The notes below the pieces were generated by a model. It saw only the letters and a list, made by a program, of their open reading frames with translations. It was not told the origin of the DNA and ran no database searches. Shown here piece by piece: positions 7,015-23,094 of a DNA stretch of 24,291 nucleotides (within the stretch, counting starts at the first letter, position 1; each line of letters starts with the position of its first letter). Position numbers and translations under genes: made by a program. The DNA comes from a virus, in UHGV virus genome UHGV-0018110; one strand, 5' to 3'.

Positions 7015-7443
7015 TTATTCCGGTTGTTCCGGCCATTCAATATCTGTTGAATTGATATCTATAGCGTCCAGCTTATCAATGTAGTCCAAAACAGCATTCA
7101 ATCTTAGAGTCTCGCTCTCAGTTAGCTTTCTGCCCGCCTGCATCTTTAATTGAATAACAGCTATAGAGCTCATAGCATTATCAATTCGGTTTTGCCTGTC
7201 AGCCTCAACTATTGCAATCAATTCATCGTGTGAAGGCGGAGCCAAATCAGCCCACACAGGCAAACCCTGTGCGCTGGCCGTCCTGTATTTATCTTCGGGA
7301 ACTAAACCCATGAAGTATTTCTGAAACTCTGAATCCGTGATTTCAACAATATCATCTGGCAGTGTTCCGGCTTTCTTATACGAGTCCATAAGAACACCTG
7401 AATACGCTATATTCTCTGATGGTGAATAATAATACTTCTGCAT
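7015..7443 (-). CDS. G: Tail fibre assembly protein (gpG-like chaperone)
   Basis: ORF directly downstream of H; start set at MQKYYYSPSE (internal Met of track ORF 7015..7515) because it abuts the H stop; AT-rich like the H 3' part. Confidence 0.75.
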   Translation of the reverse strand: MQKYYYSPSENIAYSGVLMDSYKKAGTLPDDIVEITDSEFQKYFMGLVPEDKYRTASAQGLPVWADLAPPSHDELIAIVEADRQNRIDNAMSSIAVIQLKMQAGRKLTESETLRLNAVLDYIDKLDAIDINSTDIEWPEQPE

Positions 7444-7445
7444 AA

Positions 7446-8489
7446 TTAGTACCCTATAGCCAGCCAATGGACGGTAGGGGTATACCCCAAAATGCGGGAG
7501 GTGACAGAGACACATGCATTTGTGCGCGAGCCTGCTTTCCCATCACTCCCGGCGCTCATATTTGAGCGTATAAACGTATTGAATTCGTTAGCTTGCCCCT
7601 CAAAAGTAGAGCCTGCCAAAGTCATGAAATTGACCAACGCCATATTAGGGAAAGCAACCGTATAAAGAGGCTTTGTATAATGGGTGTACCATGTTACCCC
7701 CCCCACTGTTTCCGAGTTATAGTTACCGACAGCTGATAAATTCCATATTCCCCATTGAACAATTATGCCACTCGGTAAATATTGAATACCATTTGACCCT
7801 TTCGTCGCCTGAAAAAATGACATATCCGGTACTTGCCCACTTCCCGAACCTACATTTTTTTTGGCGGCATTCCCTAACCCGAGGTTTTCAAAAAGCTTAT
7901 CAATCAGCCCCGCGTCGGCTATCTCCTTGAGCGCATTAGCAATCAGGGGGTACTGTCTGTGCGGGTTAGCTGCATCAACATGCTTTTTCATCAGGTCATC
8001 AGCATAGGCTTTCACCTCGATAACCTTATCGTCAACATACTGGCGCGTTGCCAGCACGACCGACGGGTCGATTTTCAGGGTGATGGCCGACGTGCTCGAC
8101 ACAATCAGAATCATGCGAATGGTCTGCGTGCGGCCGCTTCCCTCCTGCAGTTGCGGTTTGTAGGTCTCCGGACAGTTCGCCACGGCAATCAGAATACCGT
8201 CGTCGTCATAAAGGCCAATCTCGCGGATCCAGAAACCACCTTCATTCTCGGGAATAATCTGTTCCGCGATAATCTGACTGGTATTGGCCGGGTCAACGGT
8301 CAGCAGGTTCAGCGGCGCGATGCGTTTCTGGTTAATGAGCTTCGTCTGCGCCGGGTCAGGGGTCGGCAACGTACCATTCGCATCACCGACGGCCATCTGC
8401 GTCAGGTTGAGTTTGGTACCGAGTGCCGCCGCGTTCGCCAGCCGCGCCGCGCCCTGATTGGTCAGAATGGCAAAATATTTTGCGGTCAT
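7446..8489 (-). CDS. H: Tail fibre protein H (conserved N-terminus, divergent C-terminal receptor-binding part)
   Basis: 347-aa ORF; N-terminus (AILTNQGAARLANA...MAVGD...GGFWIREIGLYDDDGILIAVAN...EGSGRTQTIRMILIVSS) resembles the P2 gpH N-terminus from memory; the C-terminal half is AT-rich and unrelated. Confidence 0.85.
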   Translation of the reverse strand: MTAKYFAILTNQGAARLANAAALGTKLNLTQMAVGDANGTLPTPDPAQTKLINQKRIAPLNLLTVDPANTSQIIAEQIIPENEGGFWIREIGLYDDDGILIAVANCPETYKPQLQEGSGRTQTIRMILIVSSTSAITLKIDPSVVLATRQYVDDKVIEVKAYADDLMKKHVDAANPHRQYPLIANALKEIADAGLIDKLFENLGLGNAAKKNVGSGSGQVPDMSFFQATKGSNGIQYLPSGIIVQWGIWNLSAVGNYNSETVGGVTWYTHYTKPLYTVAFPNMALVNFMTLAGSTFEGQANEFNTFIRSNMSAGSDGKAGSRTNACVSVTSRILGYTPTVHWLAIGY

Positions 8490-10349: not shown

Positions 10350-10981
10350 AACGGAGCCCCCGTTTGCCCGCCGCTGTCGCCCGGGTGTTTATGGGTGTGG
10401 AGCACCTTGCCATTAGACGACAGTGACCCGCCGGAATGTTCGATATTGCCGCTCATCTTGCCGCCTTTCTGCACCTCAAGCGTCGCCGTCGTCAGCTTAT
10501 TGGTGCAAATCACCTCCGGGGTGTCGAGGGTGATACTGGTCGAGGCTTTCACCAGTACCAGCGGCACGGTTACGGTGATGGACTCCGATGCCGTCACGTC
10601 GGCCGTTTTTATGCCGCTGACCGTCAGCGCGCCGGTTTCGGGCTCGTACTCAATGACCGCACCATCAGGGAAAGCCACATGCCACGCATCCGCCGAGGCC
10701 GACGGAGCGGGGTTATCGTCGGAGAAAATACCCGGCAGCACGAAAGCGGTATCAAGCTCACCACCGATTGCCAGCAGCAGAACCTGCTCACCGACCGAGG
10801 GAGCCCACCACGTCCGCGAACGACCGGCACGGTTGGTCAGCCAGTTCAGCCATGTAGTCTGGATCCCGCCGCTTTGTACGCGGCACAGCCCCTGCACGGT
10901 ATCAACCTCAGTCACCACGCCTGAGCGGATGAGGTTGCGAATCGCGCGCGCGAGCTCCTGTATCGTGGATAACGTATTCAT
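10346..10981 (-). CDS. V: Baseplate spike / assembly protein V
   Basis: 211-aa ORF upstream of W with start/stop overlap; P2 gpV position and size. Confidence 0.85.
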   Translation of the reverse strand: MNTLSTIQELARAIRNLIRSGVVTEVDTVQGLCRVQSGGIQTTWLNWLTNRAGRSRTWWAPSVGEQVLLLAIGGELDTAFVLPGIFSDDNPAPSASADAWHVAFPDGAVIEYEPETGALTVSGIKTADVTASESITVTVPLVLVKASTSITLDTPEVICTNKLTTATLEVQKGGKMSGNIEHSGGSLSSNGKVLHTHKHPGDSGGQTGAPL

Positions 10982-11049
10982 AGTGCAAGGATGCCTCTGG
11001 TCTGTAGTCGCGCCAATTCGCGCGGCTCCGGTGGTGGTTCACACAATAT

Positions 11050-11499
11050 TTATTTGCCGAGGTGCCTGATAATGACGTCTTCAATCATCTGCTCATCGTC
11101 GCGGGTGAAGCCGAGCAACGGGCGGGCATCGTACTGCACATCCCGGCTGTTGCGGTTTGGCCGGTCTTTGAGCCCGTACTGATGCACCCGCGCCATGCGC
11201 TGCACCTTGCCGGTAAACTCCACCACCGCCGCACTGTCGCTGCCTTTAGCTTTCATAAAGCGGTTGGTGCGCAGTTTGGCGAACATTTCACGTTTAATCC
11301 GACCTTTCTTGCTCCGCACCGGCTGGCGCTTACGCGCGGCATACGGGGTGCCGTCGGGTGCCTGCTGGCGCTTGATGCGCTGTTGCTGACTGGTACGCAA
11401 CTTTTTCGCAACCTCAGCCGCCATTTGCCGACGTGCCGCCGGTGACAGGCTGGCAATCAGACCGGCAAGGCGTTCCTGCAGCGCGGTTAATTCACTCAT
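11050..11499 (-). CDS. S: Tail completion protein S
   Basis: 149-aa ORF downstream of R with overlap; P2 gpS position and size. Confidence 0.85.
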   Translation of the reverse strand: MSELTALQERLAGLIASLSPAARRQMAAEVAKKLRTSQQQRIKRQQAPDGTPYAARKRQPVRSKKGRIKREMFAKLRTNRFMKAKGSDSAAVVEFTGKVQRMARVHQYGLKDRPNRNSRDVQYDARPLLGFTRDDEQMIEDVIIRHLGK

Positions 11500-11959
11500 C
11501 CCACTTACTCACCAGTTCGCCGTTAACGTACAGCTCGACCGGGCGCGTCACCGGCTCAGGCAGCGGCGGCTCAGGGGCATAGCTGACATGCAGCGCGCCG
11601 TCGACCTCTTTGACGAGCGTGCGCTCGGTGAGCCTCAGGCTGATACTGATATCGAGCGAATCGTCGTTATTGATATCAATAATCCAGGTGAATCCTTTTT
11701 CCCGCCCGTTGTCGGTGGTCATAATGTCCGGCTGATGTTCACGCAGCCACGCCTGCACCGGCACGAATATCAAATCAAGGTCACCGGTGAAGTCGGTCAC
11801 CACCACGTTAAGCACGTACACTTTTTCAAACGACAGCGAGCTCGCCAGTCGGGAATCGGTATGTCCGTTGTCGGCAAACAGGCGCAGCATATCGGGGTTG
11901 TTTCGGAGCTGCGGCACGGCGTTAATCAGCGCTTTGCGCAGGCTTTTGTGCTTCTGCAT
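11492..11959 (-). CDS. R: Tail completion protein R
   Basis: C-terminal region (PDMLRLFADNG...LSFEK.Y.LNV.VTDFTGD.DL...REHQPDIMTTD...ELYVNGELVSKWDE) matches P2 gpR from memory; start set at MQKHK (AGGA 9 nt upstream). Confidence 0.85.
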   Translation of the reverse strand: MQKHKSLRKALINAVPQLRNNPDMLRLFADNGHTDSRLASSLSFEKVYVLNVVVTDFTGDLDLIFVPVQAWLREHQPDIMTTDNGREKGFTWIIDINNDDSLDISISLRLTERTLVKEVDGALHVSYAPEPPLPEPVTRPVELYVNGELVSKWDE

Positions 11960-12212
11960 CGAGTTCATCCTGACAGTGTTTGACGGTTTTAACCTGCAGC
12001 GCGCAGGCGGTCAGCGCGCCCTCAAGGCGGCGGATATCCGCGCTCAGGTCGCCATTGGTTTTCGGGTCACTTCCCGGCATCGGGCAAAGGCTCACCCTCG
12101 GGCATCCGTTTACCACAATCACCGGCGCTGGCGCAGGCGGTGCGGATGTGCAGCCGACGCACAACGTCAGGCAGAGCAGCGTTATACCAGCGGCGAAAGG
12201 CTTCATTTTCAT
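11922..12212 (-). CDS. lysC: Outer-membrane spanin lipoprotein (LysC/Rz1-like), embedded out of frame in lysB and overlapping R
   Basis: 96-aa ORF in an alternate frame of lysB, N-terminal signal-like segment ending in Cys residues (LLCLTLCVGC), Pro-rich mature part; classic embedded o-spanin layout. Confidence 0.55.
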   Translation of the reverse strand: MKMKPFAAGITLLCLTLCVGCTSAPPAPAPVIVVNGCPRVSLCPMPGSDPKTNGDLSADIRRLEGALTACALQVKTVKHCQDELDAEAQKPAQSAD

Positions 12213-12480
12213 TAAGTAACCTCGTTATCGTCTGCTCACGGCGGCTGGCTTCCTCGCTGGCCTTTGCGAGCTGTTCGCGCAGTTCCACCTGCGCGGATTC
12301 ATTACGTCGGGCGAGCGTACCGGCAACACTGAGCTGATTTTTCAGCATGCCAATCGTCGTCTTTTGCTCGCTCGCGACGCGATTTGCCGTCTCAAAGGAG
12401 CGGGTTAAATTGCCGTTCTCATGGCGCAACCACAGCAGCCCGAGCACGGCCAGCATCAGCAGCGTTATCAGGATTTTCAT
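12067..12480 (-). CDS. lysB: Inner-membrane spanin (LysB/Rz-like)
   Basis: Start MKILITLLMLAVLGLLWL gives an N-terminal transmembrane segment followed by coiled-coil-like sequence; the ATG overlaps the K stop (ATGA). Confidence 0.75.
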   Translation of the reverse strand: MKILITLLMLAVLGLLWLRHENGNLTRSFETANRVASEQKTTIGMLKNQLSVAGTLARRNESAQVELREQLAKASEEASRREQTITRLLNENEAFRRWYNAALPDVVRRLHIRTACASAGDCGKRMPEGEPLPDAGK

Positions 12481-12974
12481 GCCATCACCCCGCCAGCCGT
12501 GCGCCACACAGTGACCAGTTTGTCGAGGCTGTGCTCACGCTGACCGTAACCTGCACCCGGCAGCGACGCCCAGATATTGCGGCAACGTGAGATTGCTCGC
12601 TCAATACGCCCCGCTTTAATATCCTCAATGGCACCGCGCTCCCGGATTAACTGAATCGCAAGTTTGTCCTGCGACAACGGGCTGAAATCAGGTAATGCGA
12701 GCTGTTTCTGATAGTGCGGCCAGTAGAGATAAAGCTGCTGGTAACGCCCTGATGCCGTGGATTTTTCGCCGCGTCGATTAAACACTTTCGCTGGTCTGCC
12801 ATGTGCGAAAGGGTGGTCGGTGTAGTCGGTGAAAATTTCCGGCTTGCCATCAATGCCAGTGACAATGACGTCGTAACCACGATTTTTCGTCAGCGGATGC
12901 GTCGCCGTCCCTTCGGAATAGGCCAGCATGTCCAGAAACGCGGCGATATTCTGGTGAGTATTAATGACCGGCAT
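12477..12974 (-). CDS. K: Endolysin (phage lysozyme K)
   Basis: Start MPVINTHQNIAAFLDMLAYSEGT matches the P2 gpK N-terminus from memory; lies between the holin and the spanins. Confidence 0.9.
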   Translation of the reverse strand: MPVINTHQNIAAFLDMLAYSEGTATHPLTKNRGYDVIVTGIDGKPEIFTDYTDHPFAHGRPAKVFNRRGEKSTASGRYQQLYLYWPHYQKQLALPDFSPLSQDKLAIQLIRERGAIEDIKAGRIERAISRCRNIWASLPGAGYGQREHSLDKLVTVWRTAGGVMA

Positions 12975-13257
12975 CGCTATCCCCCTGTTGTGACTTAAAG
13001 CGGCGCTGAATGGCGATTTCCACCACCTGATAACCTGCAATGCCTAGCATGGATCCAATCCCACAAACGGCAGGCAGTGACATATCTGGAAACTGCACCA
13101 GAACAACACCGGCGACCATTGAAACAAAACCGCCGAGCAGCATGCGGCCGATAAACAGGCGCGGGGTAATGGGCTCACCACCCGCCAGCACTTTTCCGAC
13201 AACAATCATCACGCCAATCACAAACAGTGACAGGACGCCTTTTTCCCCTTCTGTCAT
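12961..13257 (-). CDS. Y: Holin Y
   Basis: 98-aa ORF with hydrophobic membrane-spanning segments (LSLFVIGVMIVVGKVLAGG, LLGGFVSMVAGVVLV) and a charged C-terminus, directly upstream of the endolysin. Confidence 0.85.
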   Translation of the reverse strand: MTEGEKGVLSLFVIGVMIVVGKVLAGGEPITPRLFIGRMLLGGFVSMVAGVVLVQFPDMSLPAVCGIGSMLGIAGYQVVEIAIQRRFKSQQGDSDAGH

Positions 13258-13260
13258 GGT

Positions 13261-13464
13261 TTACTCCCAAAGGTTGATAGTTTCTGTTACGGGTGACGAT
13301 GCCACGTCGGGCAGGTCAATTGCCGTGCCATGCGGCAGAATGACGCCCAGCTCAGACAGACCTGGATTAGCCTGCAGCACCGCCTTGACCACGTTCTCAG
13401 TGCGCCCGTAATACCGGGCGCAAAGCGCGTCGATGGTGTCGCCCTGCATCGCGTAGACTTTCAT
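13261..13464 (-). CDS. X: Tail protein X (LysM-like)
   Basis: 67-aa ORF (MKVYAMQGDTIDALCARYYG...NPGL) at the P2 gpX position between L and Y. Confidence 0.85.
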   Translation of the reverse strand: MKVYAMQGDTIDALCARYYGRTENVVKAVLQANPGLSELGVILPHGTAIDLPDVASSPVTETINLWE

Positions 13465-13973
13465 CAGAGCTGACCCACGATGCAGCGCGGCTTATCCTGC
13501 AGGCGCGAGACCGACCAGCGCATATCCCGCCACAGGTCATCAATGGTGGTTTCGACGCTGTCGGCTTTTTTGTCACCCTTGCCGGTGGCCTCAACCCCGC
13601 GATAACGCTCATACAGGGTGGCGGTCGCCATCGCCGTCACGGCGCTGAGGTAGTGGAAAACGCGCACATTCTCGCCGTCGATTTCCTCGACGTCAGGCAC
13701 GTCGGCCAGTGTCTTAAACCCTGCGGCAATCTGGCGTAGCCGGTAGTCGTAAAGCTCCGCATTGGTTTCCGCCATGCCGGTCTTGATGGCGTTGCGCAGG
13801 CGCGCATCGGAAACCGTCTGCTCAAGGCGCATCAGCTCGCGCACCCGCTTCGGATCCACATCAGGGAAAAAGAACGTGTTTTTAATCACTGCGTCGCCCG
13901 TCTCCGGTGCAGGAATCACCACGCCCGGTACGTCCTGCGGTTCGTCGGGTTGATTCAGTATTACTGTCGTCAT
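13464..13973 (-). CDS. L: Head completion/stabilisation protein L
   Basis: 169-aa ORF downstream of M; P2 gpL position and size. Confidence 0.85.
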   Translation of the reverse strand: MTTVILNQPDEPQDVPGVVIPAPETGDAVIKNTFFFPDVDPKRVRELMRLEQTVSDARLRNAIKTGMAETNAELYDYRLRQIAAGFKTLADVPDVEEIDGENVRVFHYLSAVTAMATATLYERYRGVEATGKGDKKADSVETTIDDLWRDMRWSVSRLQDKPRCIVGQL

Positions 13974-16983: not shown

Positions 16984-18753
16984 ATGACCATCTCCACCGA
17001 TACAACCTTGTTGCATGACCCGCGACGGCAGGCATCGCTGCTTTACTGGCAGGGCTTTTCCGTGCCACAGATTGCCGAAATGCTGCAGGTCAAGCGCCCG
17101 ACCGTGCAGAGCTGGAAGCAGCGCGACGGCTGGGACGGTATCGCACCGATTTCCCGCGTCGAAAGCAGCCTTGAGGCGCGCCTGATTCAGCTCATCGCCA
17201 AGCCGCAAAAGTCAGGCGGCGACTTCAAAGAGATTGACCTGCTCGGGCGGCAGATTGAGCGACTGGCGCGCGTTAACCGCTACAGCCAGACCGGCAACGA
17301 GGTCGACCTTAACCCCAATGTCGCCAACCGTAACAAGGGCGAGCGTAAGAAGCCGAAAAAGAACTTTTTCAGCGACGAGGCTATCGGGAAACTGGAGGAA
17401 TTATTTTTCGACCAGTCTTTCGAATACCAGTTGCAGTGGTACCGCGCAGGACTGGCGCACCGTATTCGCGACATTCTCAAATCCCGCCAGATTGGCGCGA
17501 CGTTCTATTTTTCCCGCGAGGCACTGCTGCGCGCACTCAAGACCGGCCATAACCAGATTTTTCTTTCAGCCAGTAAAACGCAGGCTTACGTGTTCCGTGA
17601 ATACATCATCCAGTTTGCGCGACTGGTCGACGTTGACCTGACCGGCGACCCGATTGTCATCGGCAACAACGGCGCAAAGCTGATTTTTCTCGGTACCAAT
17701 TCCAACACGGCGCAGAGCCATAATGGCGACCTGTATGTCGACGAAATTTTCTGGATCCCGAACTTTCAGCGGCTGCGCAAAGTCGCCTCGGGCATGGCCT
17801 CGCAAAAACACCTGCGCTCAACCTATTTTTCAACGCCCTCCACGCTGGCGCATGGCGCTTACCCCTTCTGGTCTGGCGAACTGTTCAACAAGGGGCGCAG
17901 CAGTATCACCGAGCGTATCGATATCGATATCAGCCATACCGCGCTCGCCGGTGGTCAGCTCTGCGACGATGGACAGTGGCGGCAGATTGTCACCATTGAG
18001 GACGCGCTTGCCGGTGGCTGCACCCTGTTTGACCTTGACCAGCTCAAACGCGAAAACAGCGCAGAAGACTTTAAAAACCTGTTTATGTGCGAATTTGTCG
18101 ACGACAAAGCGTCGGTGTTCCCGTTCGAGGAGCTGCAACGCTGCATGGTCGACGTGATGGAAGAATGGGAGGATTTTGCCCCGTTCGCCGATTATCCATT
18201 CGGATCCCGCCCGGTCTGGATTGGCTACGACCCGTCACACACTGGCGACAGCGCCGGGTGCGTCGTACTCGCGCCGCCGGTGGTCTCGGGTGGCAAGTTC
18301 CGCATGCTGGAGCGCCATCAGTGGAAAGGCATGGACTTTGCCGCACAGGCAGAGGGGATCCGAAAGCTGACCGAGAAATATAACGTTGAATACATCGGCA
18401 TTGACGCGACCGGCCTCGGCCTCGGCGTTTATCAGTTGGTGCGCTCATTCTTCCCGGCAGCGCGCGGTATCCGTTACACGCCTGAAATGAAAACCGCAAT
18501 GGTGCTCAAGGCAAAAGACACCATTCGCCGCGGCTGTCTGGAATACGACGCCGGGGCAACCGACGTCACTCAGTCGTTTATGTCCATCCGCAAAACCATG
18601 ACCAGCAGCGGGCGCAGCGCCACCTATGAGGCCAGCCGCACCGAGGAAGCCAGTCACGCCGATATCGCATGGGCGACCATGCACGCCCTGTTAAACGAAC
18701 CGCTTTCTGCCGGTAGCGGCATGCAGCCTAAATCTATTCTGGAGTTCAACTAA
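16984..18753 (+). CDS. P: Terminase ATPase (large) subunit P
   Basis: 589-aa ORF divergent from O and followed by the portal gene with TAATG overlap; P2 gpP position and size. Confidence 0.9.
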   Translation: MTISTDTTLLHDPRRQASLLYWQGFSVPQIAEMLQVKRPTVQSWKQRDGWDGIAPISRVESSLEARLIQLIAKPQKSGGDFKEIDLLGRQIERLARVNRYSQTGNEVDLNPNVANRNKGERKKPKKNFFSDEAIGKLEELFFDQSFEYQLQWYRAGLAHRIRDILKSRQIGATFYFSREALLRALKTGHNQIFLSASKTQAYVFREYIIQFARLVDVDLTGDPIVIGNNGAKLIFLGTNSNTAQSHNGDLYVDEIFWIPNFQRLRKVASGMASQKHLRSTYFSTPSTLAHGAYPFWSGELFNKGRSSITERIDIDISHTALAGGQLCDDGQWRQIVTIEDALAGGCTLFDLDQLKRENSAEDFKNLFMCEFVDDKASVFPFEELQRCMVDVMEEWEDFAPFADYPFGSRPVWIGYDPSHTGDSAGCVVLAPPVVSGGKFRMLERHQWKGMDFAAQAEGIRKLTEKYNVEYIGIDATGLGLGVYQLVRSFFPAARGIRYTPEMKTAMVLKAKDTIRRGCLEYDAGATDVTQSFMSIRKTMTSSGRSATYEASRTEEASHADIAWATMHALLNEPLSAGSGMQPKSILEFN

Positions 18754-19799
18754 TGGGTAAGCAAAAATCCCGCAAAGCCGCTGCGCAGAAGGCCAGCAAG
18801 CCACAACACCTGACCGCCAGCGCACCGCCAAAAACAACAGCTTTCACCTTCGGCGAGCCGGTGCCGGTACTCGATAAGCGCGACATTCTGGATTACGTCG
18901 AGTGCATCAGTAACGGCAAGTGGTACGAGCCGCCGGTCAGCTTCTCCGGGCTGGCAAAGAGCCTGCGCTCTGCTGTACATCACAGCTCACCGATTTACGT
19001 TAAGCGCAACGTGCTCGCGAGCACCTACATTCCGCACCCGTTGCTGTCCCGTCAGGATTTCAGCCGCTTTGCGCTCGACTATCTGGTATTCGGCAATGCC
19101 TTTCTTGAGCAGCGCCACAGCGTCACCGGCCAGTTAATCAAGCTGCTGGCCTCACCGGCCAAATACACCCGGCGCGGGGTCGACGATTCTATATTCTGGT
19201 TTGTGGAAAACTTCACTCTACCGCATGAGTTCGCGCCTGATACGGTGTTTCACCTGCTGGAGCCCGATATTAATCAGGAGATTTACGGCCTGCCCGAATA
19301 TCTCAGCGCGCTTAATTCTGCCTGGCTGAATGAATCCGCGACGCTGTTCCGCCGCAAGTATTACCAGAACGGCGCGCACGCGGGTTACATCATGTATGTG
19401 ACCGACCCGGCGCAGAGCGCGACCGACGTCGAATCGCTGCGCGAGGCGATGCGAAACTCGAAAGGGCTCGGCAACTTTAAGAACCTGTTTTTCTACGCTC
19501 CCGGCGGAAAACCGGACGGCATCAAAATCGTGCCACTGAGTGAGGTCGCCACAAAGGATGACTTTTTCAACATCAAGAAAGCCAGCGCCGCCGACCTGAT
19601 GGACGCGCACCGCGTACCGTTCCAGCTCATGGGCGGCAAGCCCGAGAATATCGGTTCGCTCGGTGACGTTGAGAAGGTGGCAAAAGTATTTGTGCGTAAC
19701 GAGCTGTCACCCCTGCAGGACAGGTTCAGGGAGGTAAACGACTGGCTCGGCATGGAGGTCATCAGGTTCAAAGAGTACACCCTCGACAACCCGGAATAA
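18753..19799 (+). CDS. Q: Portal (capsid) protein Q
   Basis: 348-aa ORF immediately after P and followed by a terminator and the cos site, as in P2/186. Confidence 0.9.
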   Translation: MGKQKSRKAAAQKASKPQHLTASAPPKTTAFTFGEPVPVLDKRDILDYVECISNGKWYEPPVSFSGLAKSLRSAVHHSSPIYVKRNVLASTYIPHPLLSRQDFSRFALDYLVFGNAFLEQRHSVTGQLIKLLASPAKYTRRGVDDSIFWFVENFTLPHEFAPDTVFHLLEPDINQEIYGLPEYLSALNSAWLNESATLFRRKYYQNGAHAGYIMYVTDPAQSATDVESLREAMRNSKGLGNFKNLFFYAPGGKPDGIKIVPLSEVATKDDFFNIKKASAADLMDAHRVPFQLMGGKPENIGSLGDVEKVAKVFVRNELSPLQDRFREVNDWLGMEVIRFKEYTLDNPE

Positions 19800-20225: not shown

Positions 20226-21284
20226 ATGGCAGGTGAAACTCAAAATATTTCAGCAATGGCGGAAAAGATATCTTCCGATTTATTTAAGTGGTTCAAGTGG
20301 GAGCTTGTTGGGGTAACCAATGAAAACTTTCAGTGTTTGAAGTCTACGCAACATAAAACAAAGTCTGGAACACACCCGACTGATGTTGTTTTTTCCTATA
20401 AGGATCCATACTTAAATCGGACGATTTTTTTAAATACAGATTTAAAAAGTTATGTAAAAGGGTCGATAACAGCAACCTCAATGCGAAACGCATTAGTCTC
20501 ATTGGCTAACTCTATTGATTGCGCAGAAGGTAGCAAGGAATGGAAGGATAGATACTCTTATCAAAGTGGCTCTTCTGAGGTTAGAGGAATGCTCTTTGTA
20601 TATAATCATGATGGTGAGTTTGACAGATCGTTCTATGATGTGTTTTATCAGTCTTATAATGCAGAAACTGATAAAACAAAACGGGGTATTAACCTTGATA
20701 ATATTCCTCTAAAACAAGGTCAGAAGATTCATATTATTGAGCCGAGAACTATAAATTATTTGCAATCAATAATTACGGACTTGTCTCAACTGAGTCACAA
20801 TCGAGAATTTCCTTTAGGTAAAAATTACCAGTTCTTTTACCCAGACCTATCACTTCATAAAGTTAGCGGGTCACCTGAAGAACACCCGGCAACAGTAGAG
20901 TTGTTAACGGGGCCTTTTTTGATAATTAAACACAACGATGTTAAACATTGTGATGAAGAAACTTTAGAGTGGAAAACAACCTATAAGCATGGTTATGTTA
21001 TTTATTACAATGGCGAGGGTAATAATGAATTAGAGTTTGTTTATATTCTTGATACGTTATCAAAATACCAACTCTTGGATGGAAATGAAAAGATAAGAAT
21101 TAGAATTGTACATCCAAGCATTTATAAAGATGTTCGCAGTATTTTTATGCGTGCTAAGGAAACATACTGTAGAGAATGGGGTTTCGATGAACATAAAAAA
21201 ACCATCATTGATGCCATTGATTTTCACCAAGTTGAATTTACAAAACCTCACTTCAGTTCTGTTGAGATTGGTTGGGAGCGATAA
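20226..21284 (+). CDS. Hypothetical protein, operon gene 1; possible PD-(D/E)xK-type nuclease motif near the N-terminus
   Basis: 352-aa ORF with good RBS and AT-rich codon usage. Residues around 50-74 read HPTDVVF...IFLNTDLKSY, a hPD...(D/E)xK-like arrangement. No family recognised. Confidence 0.7.
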   Translation: MAGETQNISAMAEKISSDLFKWFKWELVGVTNENFQCLKSTQHKTKSGTHPTDVVFSYKDPYLNRTIFLNTDLKSYVKGSITATSMRNALVSLANSIDCAEGSKEWKDRYSYQSGSSEVRGMLFVYNHDGEFDRSFYDVFYQSYNAETDKTKRGINLDNIPLKQGQKIHIIEPRTINYLQSIITDLSQLSHNREFPLGKNYQFFYPDLSLHKVSGSPEEHPATVELLTGPFLIIKHNDVKHCDEETLEWKTTYKHGYVIYYNGEGNNELEFVYILDTLSKYQLLDGNEKIRIRIVHPSIYKDVRSIFMRAKETYCREWGFDEHKKTIIDAIDFHQVEFTKPHFSSVEIGWER

Positions 21285-21286
21285 GT

Positions 21287-22411
21287 ATGAAAATCGGTTT
21301 GTATAGCGTTAATGACAAAGCTATGTTTGATGCTCTCAATCAAACAAAGGTGACTCATGAAGACATGAAAAGCCTTTTTTTCAAAAGAGGCACTATTATT
21401 TCTAAGGATACAAAACGGAAGACTTTAGCTTTGGATTTTTCGAAGAACTTCCACGGCTATTATGACTTTGAATATTTATCAGAAATTCTTGGATCTGTAG
21501 GGAGAAGAGAGAAAGTATCAATTAATATTGTCAACAGTGCAATTAGTTTAAGTGATATGGAAGTCACAATAAAATCTATATGTGAAGAATTACAAAAAGA
21601 GGGGGATGTAACAAATATCAATTACACCGAGAATGGATTTGAGGTGTCAGTAAAATATGTCAAGCTGGATTTTAAAATGAGCGAGTTTCGGCAATCCTCA
21701 TCTCGCGAGGCTAAAATACAAGTAGAGTTGAATGATGAGGGAGAGTATATTACGCGCTTCCCTCAGAATGCCAAGGCACATGAGTTTAATGAACTTTTGA
21801 TTAAAAAAATAAAAGAAACTAATAATGATGAGCCTGTAAGTCTTGAAGAGATATCGCTTGAAACGGTCAAAGATTCAAATGAACGTAGTCGTTTCTTTAA
21901 AGAACTGATCGTTAGTATGCCAAATTACAAATGTGTCGATGTGTCAGATGTTTATGTCACCCATCCAGTATTAGAGGTTAAAAAACCATCTGAATCTGAA
22001 GATGATGAAGATGACTCGGATGAGGATGATGATGCTGTAATAGACACTGGGTATCATATTTCAAAGGCATCATTGAAAGGAAGGGGTGTCCTTGAATCAC
22101 CAGAACTGGAAGAGTTATTGGGTAATGGGTTTTACATTACAAAGATAATATGGAGTTCGGTAGTCGAAGGTTTTAAAGACTCCGATAAGTATGAATTCGA
22201 AGCCCAGTTTGTGGATCCGGATAAATGTAAGCTGTTTTCTTATCTCGTTCGTGGATGTTATAAATATAAAAAAGTAAATGTGTTTACTAATCGGCAAAAT
22301 GTGGATAAGGAAAAAGAAAATGTGCTATTATTATCAATAGAAAAAACGGCTCGAGAAATCTCTAATAGAATAATATCTTTAAATACTCTCGAGGTAGTCA
22401 CTGAAAAATAA
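21287..22411 (+). CDS. Hypothetical protein, operon gene 2; contains a poly-acidic tract
   Basis: ATG 2 nt after the gene 1 stop with GGGAG upstream (the track ORF begins slightly earlier at a TTG); about 374 aa; tract SESEDDEDDSDEDDD at nt 21989-22033. No recognised motifs. Confidence 0.7.
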   Translation: MKIGLYSVNDKAMFDALNQTKVTHEDMKSLFFKRGTIISKDTKRKTLALDFSKNFHGYYDFEYLSEILGSVGRREKVSINIVNSAISLSDMEVTIKSICEELQKEGDVTNINYTENGFEVSVKYVKLDFKMSEFRQSSSREAKIQVELNDEGEYITRFPQNAKAHEFNELLIKKIKETNNDEPVSLEEISLETVKDSNERSRFFKELIVSMPNYKCVDVSDVYVTHPVLEVKKPSESEDDEDDSDEDDDAVIDTGYHISKASLKGRGVLESPELEELLGNGFYITKIIWSSVVEGFKDSDKYEFEAQFVDPDKCKLFSYLVRGCYKYKKVNVFTNRQNVDKEKENVLLLSIEKTAREISNRIISLNTLEVVTEK

Positions 22412-22422
22412 AAGGAGTTGTT

Positions 22423-23094
22423 ATGAAAACAAAATGGTTTACTGCCAACTTCCCTGCCGGTCTCGATAGGTTATACCAGGCCATCATAAACACGCCTTTT
22501 GACAGTGACAAAGGTTGGGGGTTTAGTATTCTTTCATATGAAGATAAGTATATATCTTCAAAATATATTGAAAGGGTTGAGGTAAGCGAAGTAATCATAG
22601 ACCCCTATGGTAATGAAACTGAGTTTAATCATTTCAAATATGTGCAGTTTAACTTTTGGTTTTTTAAAGCTCAAGGCGGTAACTTCATTTTAATAATTGA
22701 TTCTCCGCCTAGAAGTATCAAGGGTTTTATCTCCAATGTGATTAAGGCAACTGAATCCGATTTTAATGTTTCTTATCTTGTGATTCAAATTGATGAGTTT
22801 ATAAAATTTATCACGCCTCACTTCGAAAAGGTTCAGGTGCACAAGGCCAAATTAAAGGATTTGACTTTTAGTAAAAATACATCTGGCATTTTAGAACTTG
22901 AGTCTTCAAATGACGCGATAGATGAGATGAGAAATATTTTTAAAAATGCAAAATTCACGATTGATAAAGTTAAATTGAGTGTTAAATCTAACACTGGCAA
23001 TGAAACATTAGAAGTGAATTCCAATGGTTCTCTTAGCTTCTCAGAGGAGCTTTTTGATAAGATATTCTCTGCAGTTGAGCGTTTCACTTTCTAA
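22423..23094 (+). CDS. Hypothetical protein, operon gene 3
   Basis: 223-aa ORF with a canonical AAGGAG RBS 5 nt upstream, 11 nt after gene 2; AT-rich; followed by a terminator. No recognised motifs. Confidence 0.7.
   Translation: MKTKWFTANFPAGLDRLYQAIINTPFDSDKGWGFSILSYEDKYISSKYIERVEVSEVIIDPYGNETEFNHFKYVQFNFWFFKAQGGNFILIIDSPPRSIKGFISNVIKATESDFNVSYLVIQIDEFIKFITPHFEKVQVHKAKLKDLTFSKNTSGILELESSNDAIDEMRNIFKNAKFTIDKVKLSVKSNTGNETLEVNSNGSLSFSEELFDKIFSAVERFTF

Follow-up and report, generated by a model that had tools for sequence, protein, structure and literature searches.

The 24,291 nucleotides (nt) of viral DNA analysed here, the virus genome UHGV-0018110 (hereafter the window), carry on the minus strand a compact set of lysis genes, which is very likely the intact lysis cassette of a 186-like phage or prophage (Eganvirus-type, P2 family) following the canonical three-step route of lysis in Gram-negative hosts. 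The genes, called from a listing of open reading frames (ORFs) and by direct reading of the sequence, are arranged on that strand in the order X, Y, K, lysB, lysC, R (then S), with Y coding for the holin, K for the endolysin, and lysB and lysC for the i-spanin and the o-spanin, respectively. An initial annotation of this locus claimed that a lysA-like gene is missing and that the o-spanin gene runs past lysB into R. The coordinates it gave all hold, with the genes on the minus strand, and each of its gene assignments (Y, K, lysB, lysC, R) was confirmed by matches to protein families. The identities of the genes, the geometry of their overlaps, their conservation, and the purifying selection acting on the lysC frame follow directly from the comparisons described below.

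The close relatives of the cassette are numerous. Over 2.1 kb (11400-13500), the DNA is 97.8% identical to that of Escherichia phage vB_EcoM-613R3 (613R3 below) and 91.3% identical to that of phage 186; the identity of the same stretch is 90-92% to PSP3 and several Salmonella phages and ~75% to Klebsiella phages. Prophages in ~60 complete E. coli genomes also carry the cassette (~98% identity), and RefSeq labels their genes lysB and lysC. The gene order and junctions are shared by 186, PSP3, several Salmonella phages, a Klebsiella phage, and these prophages.

In the proposed course of lysis, the holin Y would accumulate in the inner membrane and open holes there at a set time, and the endolysin K would go through these holes to degrade peptidoglycan. 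LysB, expected to be anchored in the inner membrane via its N-terminal helix, and LysC would together span the periplasm and, after removal of the wall, fuse or disrupt the outer membrane. LysC is a predicted outer-membrane lipoprotein, which would be lipidated at Cys21 after cleavage by signal peptidase II. We infer this lipidation, the localization of LysC, and the membrane fusion by analogy with the work on lambda Rz/Rz1 and P2 LysB/LysC (PMC6139136, PMC3091744). At the level of translation, lysB is probably coupled to K via an ATGA overlap, lysC would have a ribosome-binding site of its own (GAGG) within lysB and be translated in the +1 frame, and R would initiate in the terminal 38 nt of lysC.

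The import of these findings goes little beyond correct annotation: Y, K, lysB, lysC, and R can be named with confidence, and the element becomes recognizable as 186-like with an intact lysis module.

Holin, endolysin and the junction without lysA

The holin gene Y (12961-13257, minus strand) encodes 98 amino acids (aa) matching PF04550, Phage_holin_3_2 (E 6e-42), and the holin family PHROG 175 (E 9e-46); its product is a homologue of 186 Orf24 and of P2 Y. The end of Y overlaps by 14 nt the start of K (12477-12974, minus strand), the product of which (165 aa) belongs to the endolysin family PHROG 90 (E 2e-68), matches lambda lysozyme in the Protein Data Bank (PDB entries 1AM7 and 3D3D, E 1e-43), and shares 92.7% identity with P2 K and 91.5% with 186 P. 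Neither K nor LysB gave Pfam matches (for K, none in Pfam-A at E <= 0.01), and both were identified instead via PHROGs, NCBIfam, and PDB. As to the labels in public databases, RefSeq places the E. coli copies of K in either GH24 or GH104. An N-terminal hydrophobic segment is absent from K, which should therefore be a cytoplasmic, lambda R-like endolysin depending on the holin for its release.

The next gene on the minus strand, lysB (12067-12480), encodes 137 aa when counted from its ATG. Its product matches the phage_LysB equivalog TIGR03495 with 159.1 bits (cutoff 92.75; residues 2-136 covered) and PHROG 89, Rz-like spanin (E 8e-54). The predicted N-terminal transmembrane helix comprises approximately residues 2-18, with the hydropathy maximum at residues 3-13, and the remainder has the appearance of a charged periplasmic domain. 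In the initial annotation, lysB reached up to 12507. The frame is indeed the same and open up to that point, but the start implied there is an upstream GTG, and the likely start of lysB is the ATG at 12480. The stop codon of K (TGA, 12477-12479) and this ATG (12478-12480) share the minus-strand tetranucleotide ATGA at 12477-12480, as read from the sequence. The order of Y, K, and then directly lysB, joined through ATGA, is thus as first proposed, and the overlap of the K stop with the lysB start leaves no room for a gene between them.

In the P2 record, that place is occupied by lysA, which encodes a putative antiholin of 141 aa; according to the annotation, the gene is not essential but influences when lysis takes place. 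The gap between K and lysB in P2 spans 439 nt, counted up to the ATG selected as the LysB start, and holds this gene. When the P2 LysA and the LysA-like protein of Escherichia phage Midge were compared by tblastn with the whole 24-kb window, there were chance hits at most, the best of which had an E-value of 0.14 and lay in the terminase gene. The lysA gene is absent from the window and has not been relocated within it, so the ATGA junction and the null search bear out the absence claimed in the initial annotation.

One could suspect that a decaying prophage recently lost lysA by deletion and that the cassette is defective, given that P2 lysA sits exactly at the K-lysB junction and that the DNA homology with P2 breaks at this very place (window 12380-12486). 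Such a scenario is most improbable in view of the spread of the junction throughout the lineage. The -4 ATGA junction is shared by 186, 613R3, and the Klebsiella phage ST147-VIM1phi7.1 (~75% DNA identity), and PSP3, BIS20, and SEN1 align across it as one piece of ungapped length. Moreover, the genes neighbouring the lysis cassette are all intact, and lysA is dispensable according to the P2 record. In the phage collection, LysC-like sequences were found in 193 records and LysA-like ones in 79. Lacking lysA is normal for the 186 lineage and has been published as such; it is neither a defect nor a novelty.

The effect of P2 lysA on the timing of lysis raises the idea that cassettes of the 186 type time lysis by an unrecognized mechanism, e.g., a property of holin Y itself or a function encoded at another place. 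We regard this as unlikely, and no finding here points to a new component. In this reading, with the holin-endolysin(-antiholin) block between X and lysB being swapped as a unit among phages that are nearly identical elsewhere, the lineage would become a natural test bed for the co-evolution of antiholins and holin types.

Coding evidence for lysC and the signals of its product

The o-spanin gene lysC (11922-12212, minus strand) encodes 96 aa with a predicted mature form of 76 aa. Its start codon lies within lysB, in the +1 frame; the two genes share 146 nt, and lysC continues for 145 nt past the lysB stop. The extension consists of a segment coding for LysC only (107 nt from the lysB stop to the R start, 11960-12066, minus strand) and of 38 nt in which the 3' end of lysC and the 5' end of R overlap in different frames (11922-11959, minus strand); the latter overlap is also 38 nt long in P2, 186, Midge, 613R3, and the Klebsiella phage. 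A Shine-Dalgarno sequence, GAGG (12220-12223, minus strand, as read from the sequence), lies within lysB, 7 nt 5' of the lysC ATG. The tail completion/terminator gene R (11492-11959, minus strand; 155 aa; PF06891 P2_Phage_GpR, E 9e-42) has its start ATG at 11959 with an AGGA Shine-Dalgarno sequence 8 nt upstream, in agreement with the annotated starts of P2 R and 186 N. An alternative, poorly placed ATG at 11968 would give an R of 158 aa and a lysC/R overlap of 47 nt.

The start of lysC in another frame within lysB, its extension by 145 nt beyond the lysB stop, and its overlap with R thus correspond to the initial description. The overhang into R, although real, does not distinguish the cassette from P2, which has identical values of 146, 145, and 38 nt. 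In a de novo comparison of the geometry, these three values and the frame offsets of +1/+1 were the same in the window, 186, Midge, 613R3, and P2; KP12 and a Pseudomonas phage were left out of it, as the heuristic picks of their start codons were unreliable. The o-spanin gene begins inside the i-spanin gene in a different frame and ends beyond it, which is the arrangement of the P2-type overlapped architecture. P2 is the prototype of this two-component class (PMC6139136); its lysC likewise starts in the +1 frame inside lysB and has its stop codon within R, in another frame (PMC3091744). Passing the lysB stop by 145 nt, lysC departs from the embedded arrangement of the lambda type.

Open frames are common in this GC-rich stretch, and several unsupported ORFs of 65-142 aa are present on its opposite strand; the open frame of lysC alone means little because ORFs of comparable size occur there without support. 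This circumstance speaks for regarding lysC as a chance open frame and the 107 nt between lysB and R as an untranslated spacer. The probability of such an explanation is practically negligible, however, since lysC is distinguished from a chance frame by the matches of its product to profile models, by its substitution pattern, and by its homologues. LysC matches the P2_Rz1 equivalog NF038368 of NCBIfam with 128 bits (cutoff 27, E 1e-37) and PF23793, "Rz1-like lysis system protein LysC", with 49.2 bits (cutoff 27, E 5e-13), whereas the five plus-strand ORFs (65-142 aa) across 11588-12590 gave no match to PHROG families at E <= 0.01. A database search with LysC returned 175 homologues, nearly all of them with PF23793.

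The substitution pattern is most telling in the segment coding for LysC only. All six differences from 186 in these 107 nt are at third codon positions of the lysC frame and are synonymous, as are the differences from 613R3 (three) and from Midge (two). In comparison with P2, 11 of the 20 changed codons are synonymous in the lysC frame (synonymous to nonsynonymous, 11:9), the corresponding ratios in the two other frames being 3:21 and 1:21; a chance frame is refuted by this pattern. In the part shared by lysB and lysC, synonymous changes numbered 10 and 8 in the two coding frames and 0 of 22 in the third one. Consequently, lysC is a real gene, and its frame is under purifying selection. The initial annotation had made its reading contingent on the conservation of this frame, which turned out to be conserved and open in every relative examined.

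The N-terminus of LysC has the layout of a signal peptide followed by a lipobox (codons 1-21, 12150-12212, minus strand; the codon of Cys21 at 12150-12152), as delineated with an alignment of 75 full-length homologues. The n-region MKMK, with the basic residues K2 and K4, is followed by the h-region PFAAGITLLCLTL, then by CVG, Cys21, and TS. The hydrophobic core covers residues 5-17 and the hydropathy peak residues 9-19; relative to Cys21, there is Val at -2, Gly at -1, and Thr at +2. In the alignment, Cys21 is present in 74 of the 75 sequences, and Gly, Ser, or Ala at -1 in 74/75. Position -3 is taken by Cys in 65/75 (C-[AV]-G-C), including P2 LysC, and by Leu in eight, giving the canonical L-S-G-C.

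Several points weigh against the assignment of LysC as a canonical o-spanin lipoprotein. The Cys at -3 in its lipobox, L-C-V-G-C, fails the strict core of the PROSITE pattern PS51257 and falls outside the lipobox consensus [LVI][ASTVI][GAS]C given by Kongari et al. (PMC6139136). In addition, several public records contain truncated LysC forms (52, 57, or 81 aa) devoid of a signal peptide. On the other hand, a variant of the pattern permitting Cys at -3 is matched by LysC, the lipobox of P2 LysC (L-C-A-G-C) has the same Cys at -3, and several deviant lipoboxes, one of them validated, are known among o-spanins (Kongari et al., PMC6139136). We retain the lipoprotein assignment because the Cys at -3 is a family-wide trait. 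In this respect, the expectation of the initial annotation that LysC has a functional lipobox and signal peptide is supported as far as the presence of a signal peptide with a putative lipidation Cys is concerned; the lipobox itself is non-canonical at -3, as in P2 LysC. The signal peptide of LysC also holds a further cysteine, Cys14, and its codons 1-21 are additionally constrained by the overlapping lysB frame.

The truncated records bring up the possibility that the true LysC is one of the shorter annotated forms, starting at Met45 (52 aa) or at the equivalents of residues 16 (81 aa) and 40 (57 aa); such a product would lack the signal peptide and would not become a lipoprotein of the outer membrane. 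Public annotations of LysC are inconsistent (96, 81, 57, or 52 aa, at times under the name "holin"). Midge and vB_EcoM-613R3 annotate a LysC gene of 159 nt (52 aa), and the 81-aa form, starting with MLC[AV]GC, makes up 29 of 120 listed homologue clusters, among which the 57-aa and 52-aa forms are present as well. A short LysC is nevertheless very unlikely. Codon 16 of the window lysC encodes Thr instead of Met, which leaves the window without a start for the 81-aa form; the 96-aa frame is uninterrupted in every relative inspected, with a conserved MK.K n-region, hydrophobic core, and Cys21; and the GAGG motif is placed 7 nt before Met1 of the full-length form. With a shorter LysC, the conserved N-terminal signal would be left unexplained.

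The curated SpaninDB likewise lists the 96-aa form with a mature part of 76 aa, and the starts of overlapped o-spanin genes are known to be often miscalled (PMC6139136). In the SpaninDB supplement, the 186-like phage PsP3 is entered as "ovl", with an overlap of 146 nt and an o-spanin of 96 aa, the periplasmic part of which has 76 aa; these lengths imply cleavage before Cys21. The full-length LysC is therefore preferred here, and the region provides a good example of the miscalling of overlapped o-spanins: the 96-aa form is the only one carrying the signal peptide needed for function.

The spanin subunits also contain cysteines in their predicted periplasmic parts, namely Cys37, Cys43, Cys70, and Cys80 in mature LysC and Cys116 and Cys122 in LysB, the check being confined to the presence of these residues. 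Cys37 and Cys43 of LysC are near-invariant among the 75 homologues. The periplasmic cysteines of LysB and LysC would be available for intermolecular disulfide bonds.

Regulatory signals, flanking genes and other parts of the window

In the P2 record, positions 8399-8417 within lysC harbor a perfect 8-bp hairpin (GCTGGCAC-GCT-GTGCCAGC) marked there as a putative attenuator of O-operon transcription. Its counterpart in the window (11997-12015, minus strand) has diverged, and its folding is not better than that of shuffled sequences (z = -0.2). A scan of 10900-13600 against Rfam at E <= 0.1 gave zero matches, and the scan for promoters and terminators yielded no signal above the expectation from shuffling.

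The lysis genes belong to the late-gene region of the element and are flanked by tail genes. The upstream neighbour of the cassette is X (13261-13464, minus strand; 67 aa), which matches PF05489, Phage_tail_X (E 8e-28), and occupies the position of 186 Orf23 and P2 X. Downstream of R lies S (11050-11499, minus strand), encoding a tail completion/virion morphogenesis protein of 149 aa (PF05069, E 8e-40). Further along the minus strand, the region of 7015-8489 contains a short tail-fibre gene of 347 aa, combining a P2 H-like N-terminal collar (PF12571) with a weakly gp53-like C-terminus. This ORF overlaps the downstream tail-fibre assembly ORF (PF02413) by 70 nt, and the real start of the assembly gene is probably further in.

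On the plus strand, three consecutive ORFs (20226-23094; 352, 379, and 223 aa) are situated beside the portal gene Q (18753-19799). In PADLOC, they matched Hp1 (E 3e-65), Hp2 (E 6e-36), and Hp3 (E 5e-8), respectively, and no Pfam match was obtained for them. By these matches, the ORFs resemble an anti-phage system of three genes and are candidates for one. The set of Hp1, Hp2, and Hp3 may correspond to the "3HP" system. The site of these ORFs, the cos-proximal variable region between gpQ and gpA, is a defence hotspot of P2-like phages (Rousset et al. 2022, PMC9122126).

Comparison with known lysis cassettes

K is a homologue of lambda R, and the spanin genes come last in the holin-endolysin cassette both in lambda and here (PMC6139136). 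The lambda Rz1 gene is fully embedded in Rz, whereas lysC of the window extends 145 nt past lysB; furthermore, LysB and LysC match models of the P2 type, and no match to a lambda Rz/Rz1 model was detected for them. Complementation of lambda Rz/Rz1 by P2 lysB/lysC was reportedly described by Markov and colleagues in 2004.

The cassette of P2 (NC_001895), with the order Y-K-lysA-lysB-lysC, contains homologues of all the genes concerned (identity of 92.7% for K, 62% for LysB, 73% for LysC, and 73% for R; Y is homologous too). The overlap geometry of lysB, lysC, and R and the relations of their frames are the same. P2 differs in possessing, between K and lysB, the lysA gene (141 aa, non-essential), which has no counterpart in the window, and in the attenuator hairpin of lysC, which is not conserved there.

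In Midge, an identity of ~96% to the window extends over lysC, R, S, and all of lysB but about its first 20 nt, and the overlaps are the same. In place of window positions 12461-13290, Midge has an unrelated block comprising genes for a class II holin, for a SAR endolysin, and for a putative antiholin resembling LysA. The identity is ~96% on both sides of this replacement (10901-12460 and 13291-13900), with the junctions located in X and in the first 20 nt of lysB. The difference between Midge and the window is a clean cassette swap. In 186-like Yersinia phages, the same two-piece match with 60% coverage was seen (by alignment alone).

In phage 186 (NC_001317/U32222), Orf23, Orf24, P, Orf27, Orf28, and N correspond to X, Y, K, LysB, LysC, and R, respectively, and lysA is lacking. 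The lengths of the proteins (98, 165, 137, and 96 aa), the ATGA junction of K and lysB, and the overlaps of 146, 145, and 38 nt are all shared with the window, and the protein identity amounts to 91.5% for K, 91.2% for LysB, 94.8% for LysC, and 94.8% for R. The differences are confined to points, e.g., LysC residue 16, which is Thr in the window and Met in 186, and LysC residues 23-25, which read SAP and PEQ, respectively. A comparison with P2 and 186, as proposed in the initial annotation, thus places the order lacking lysA with 186 and the overhang of lysC with both phages. The cassette of the window is already known in all respects, from 186 for the missing lysA and from P2 for the overhanging lysC.

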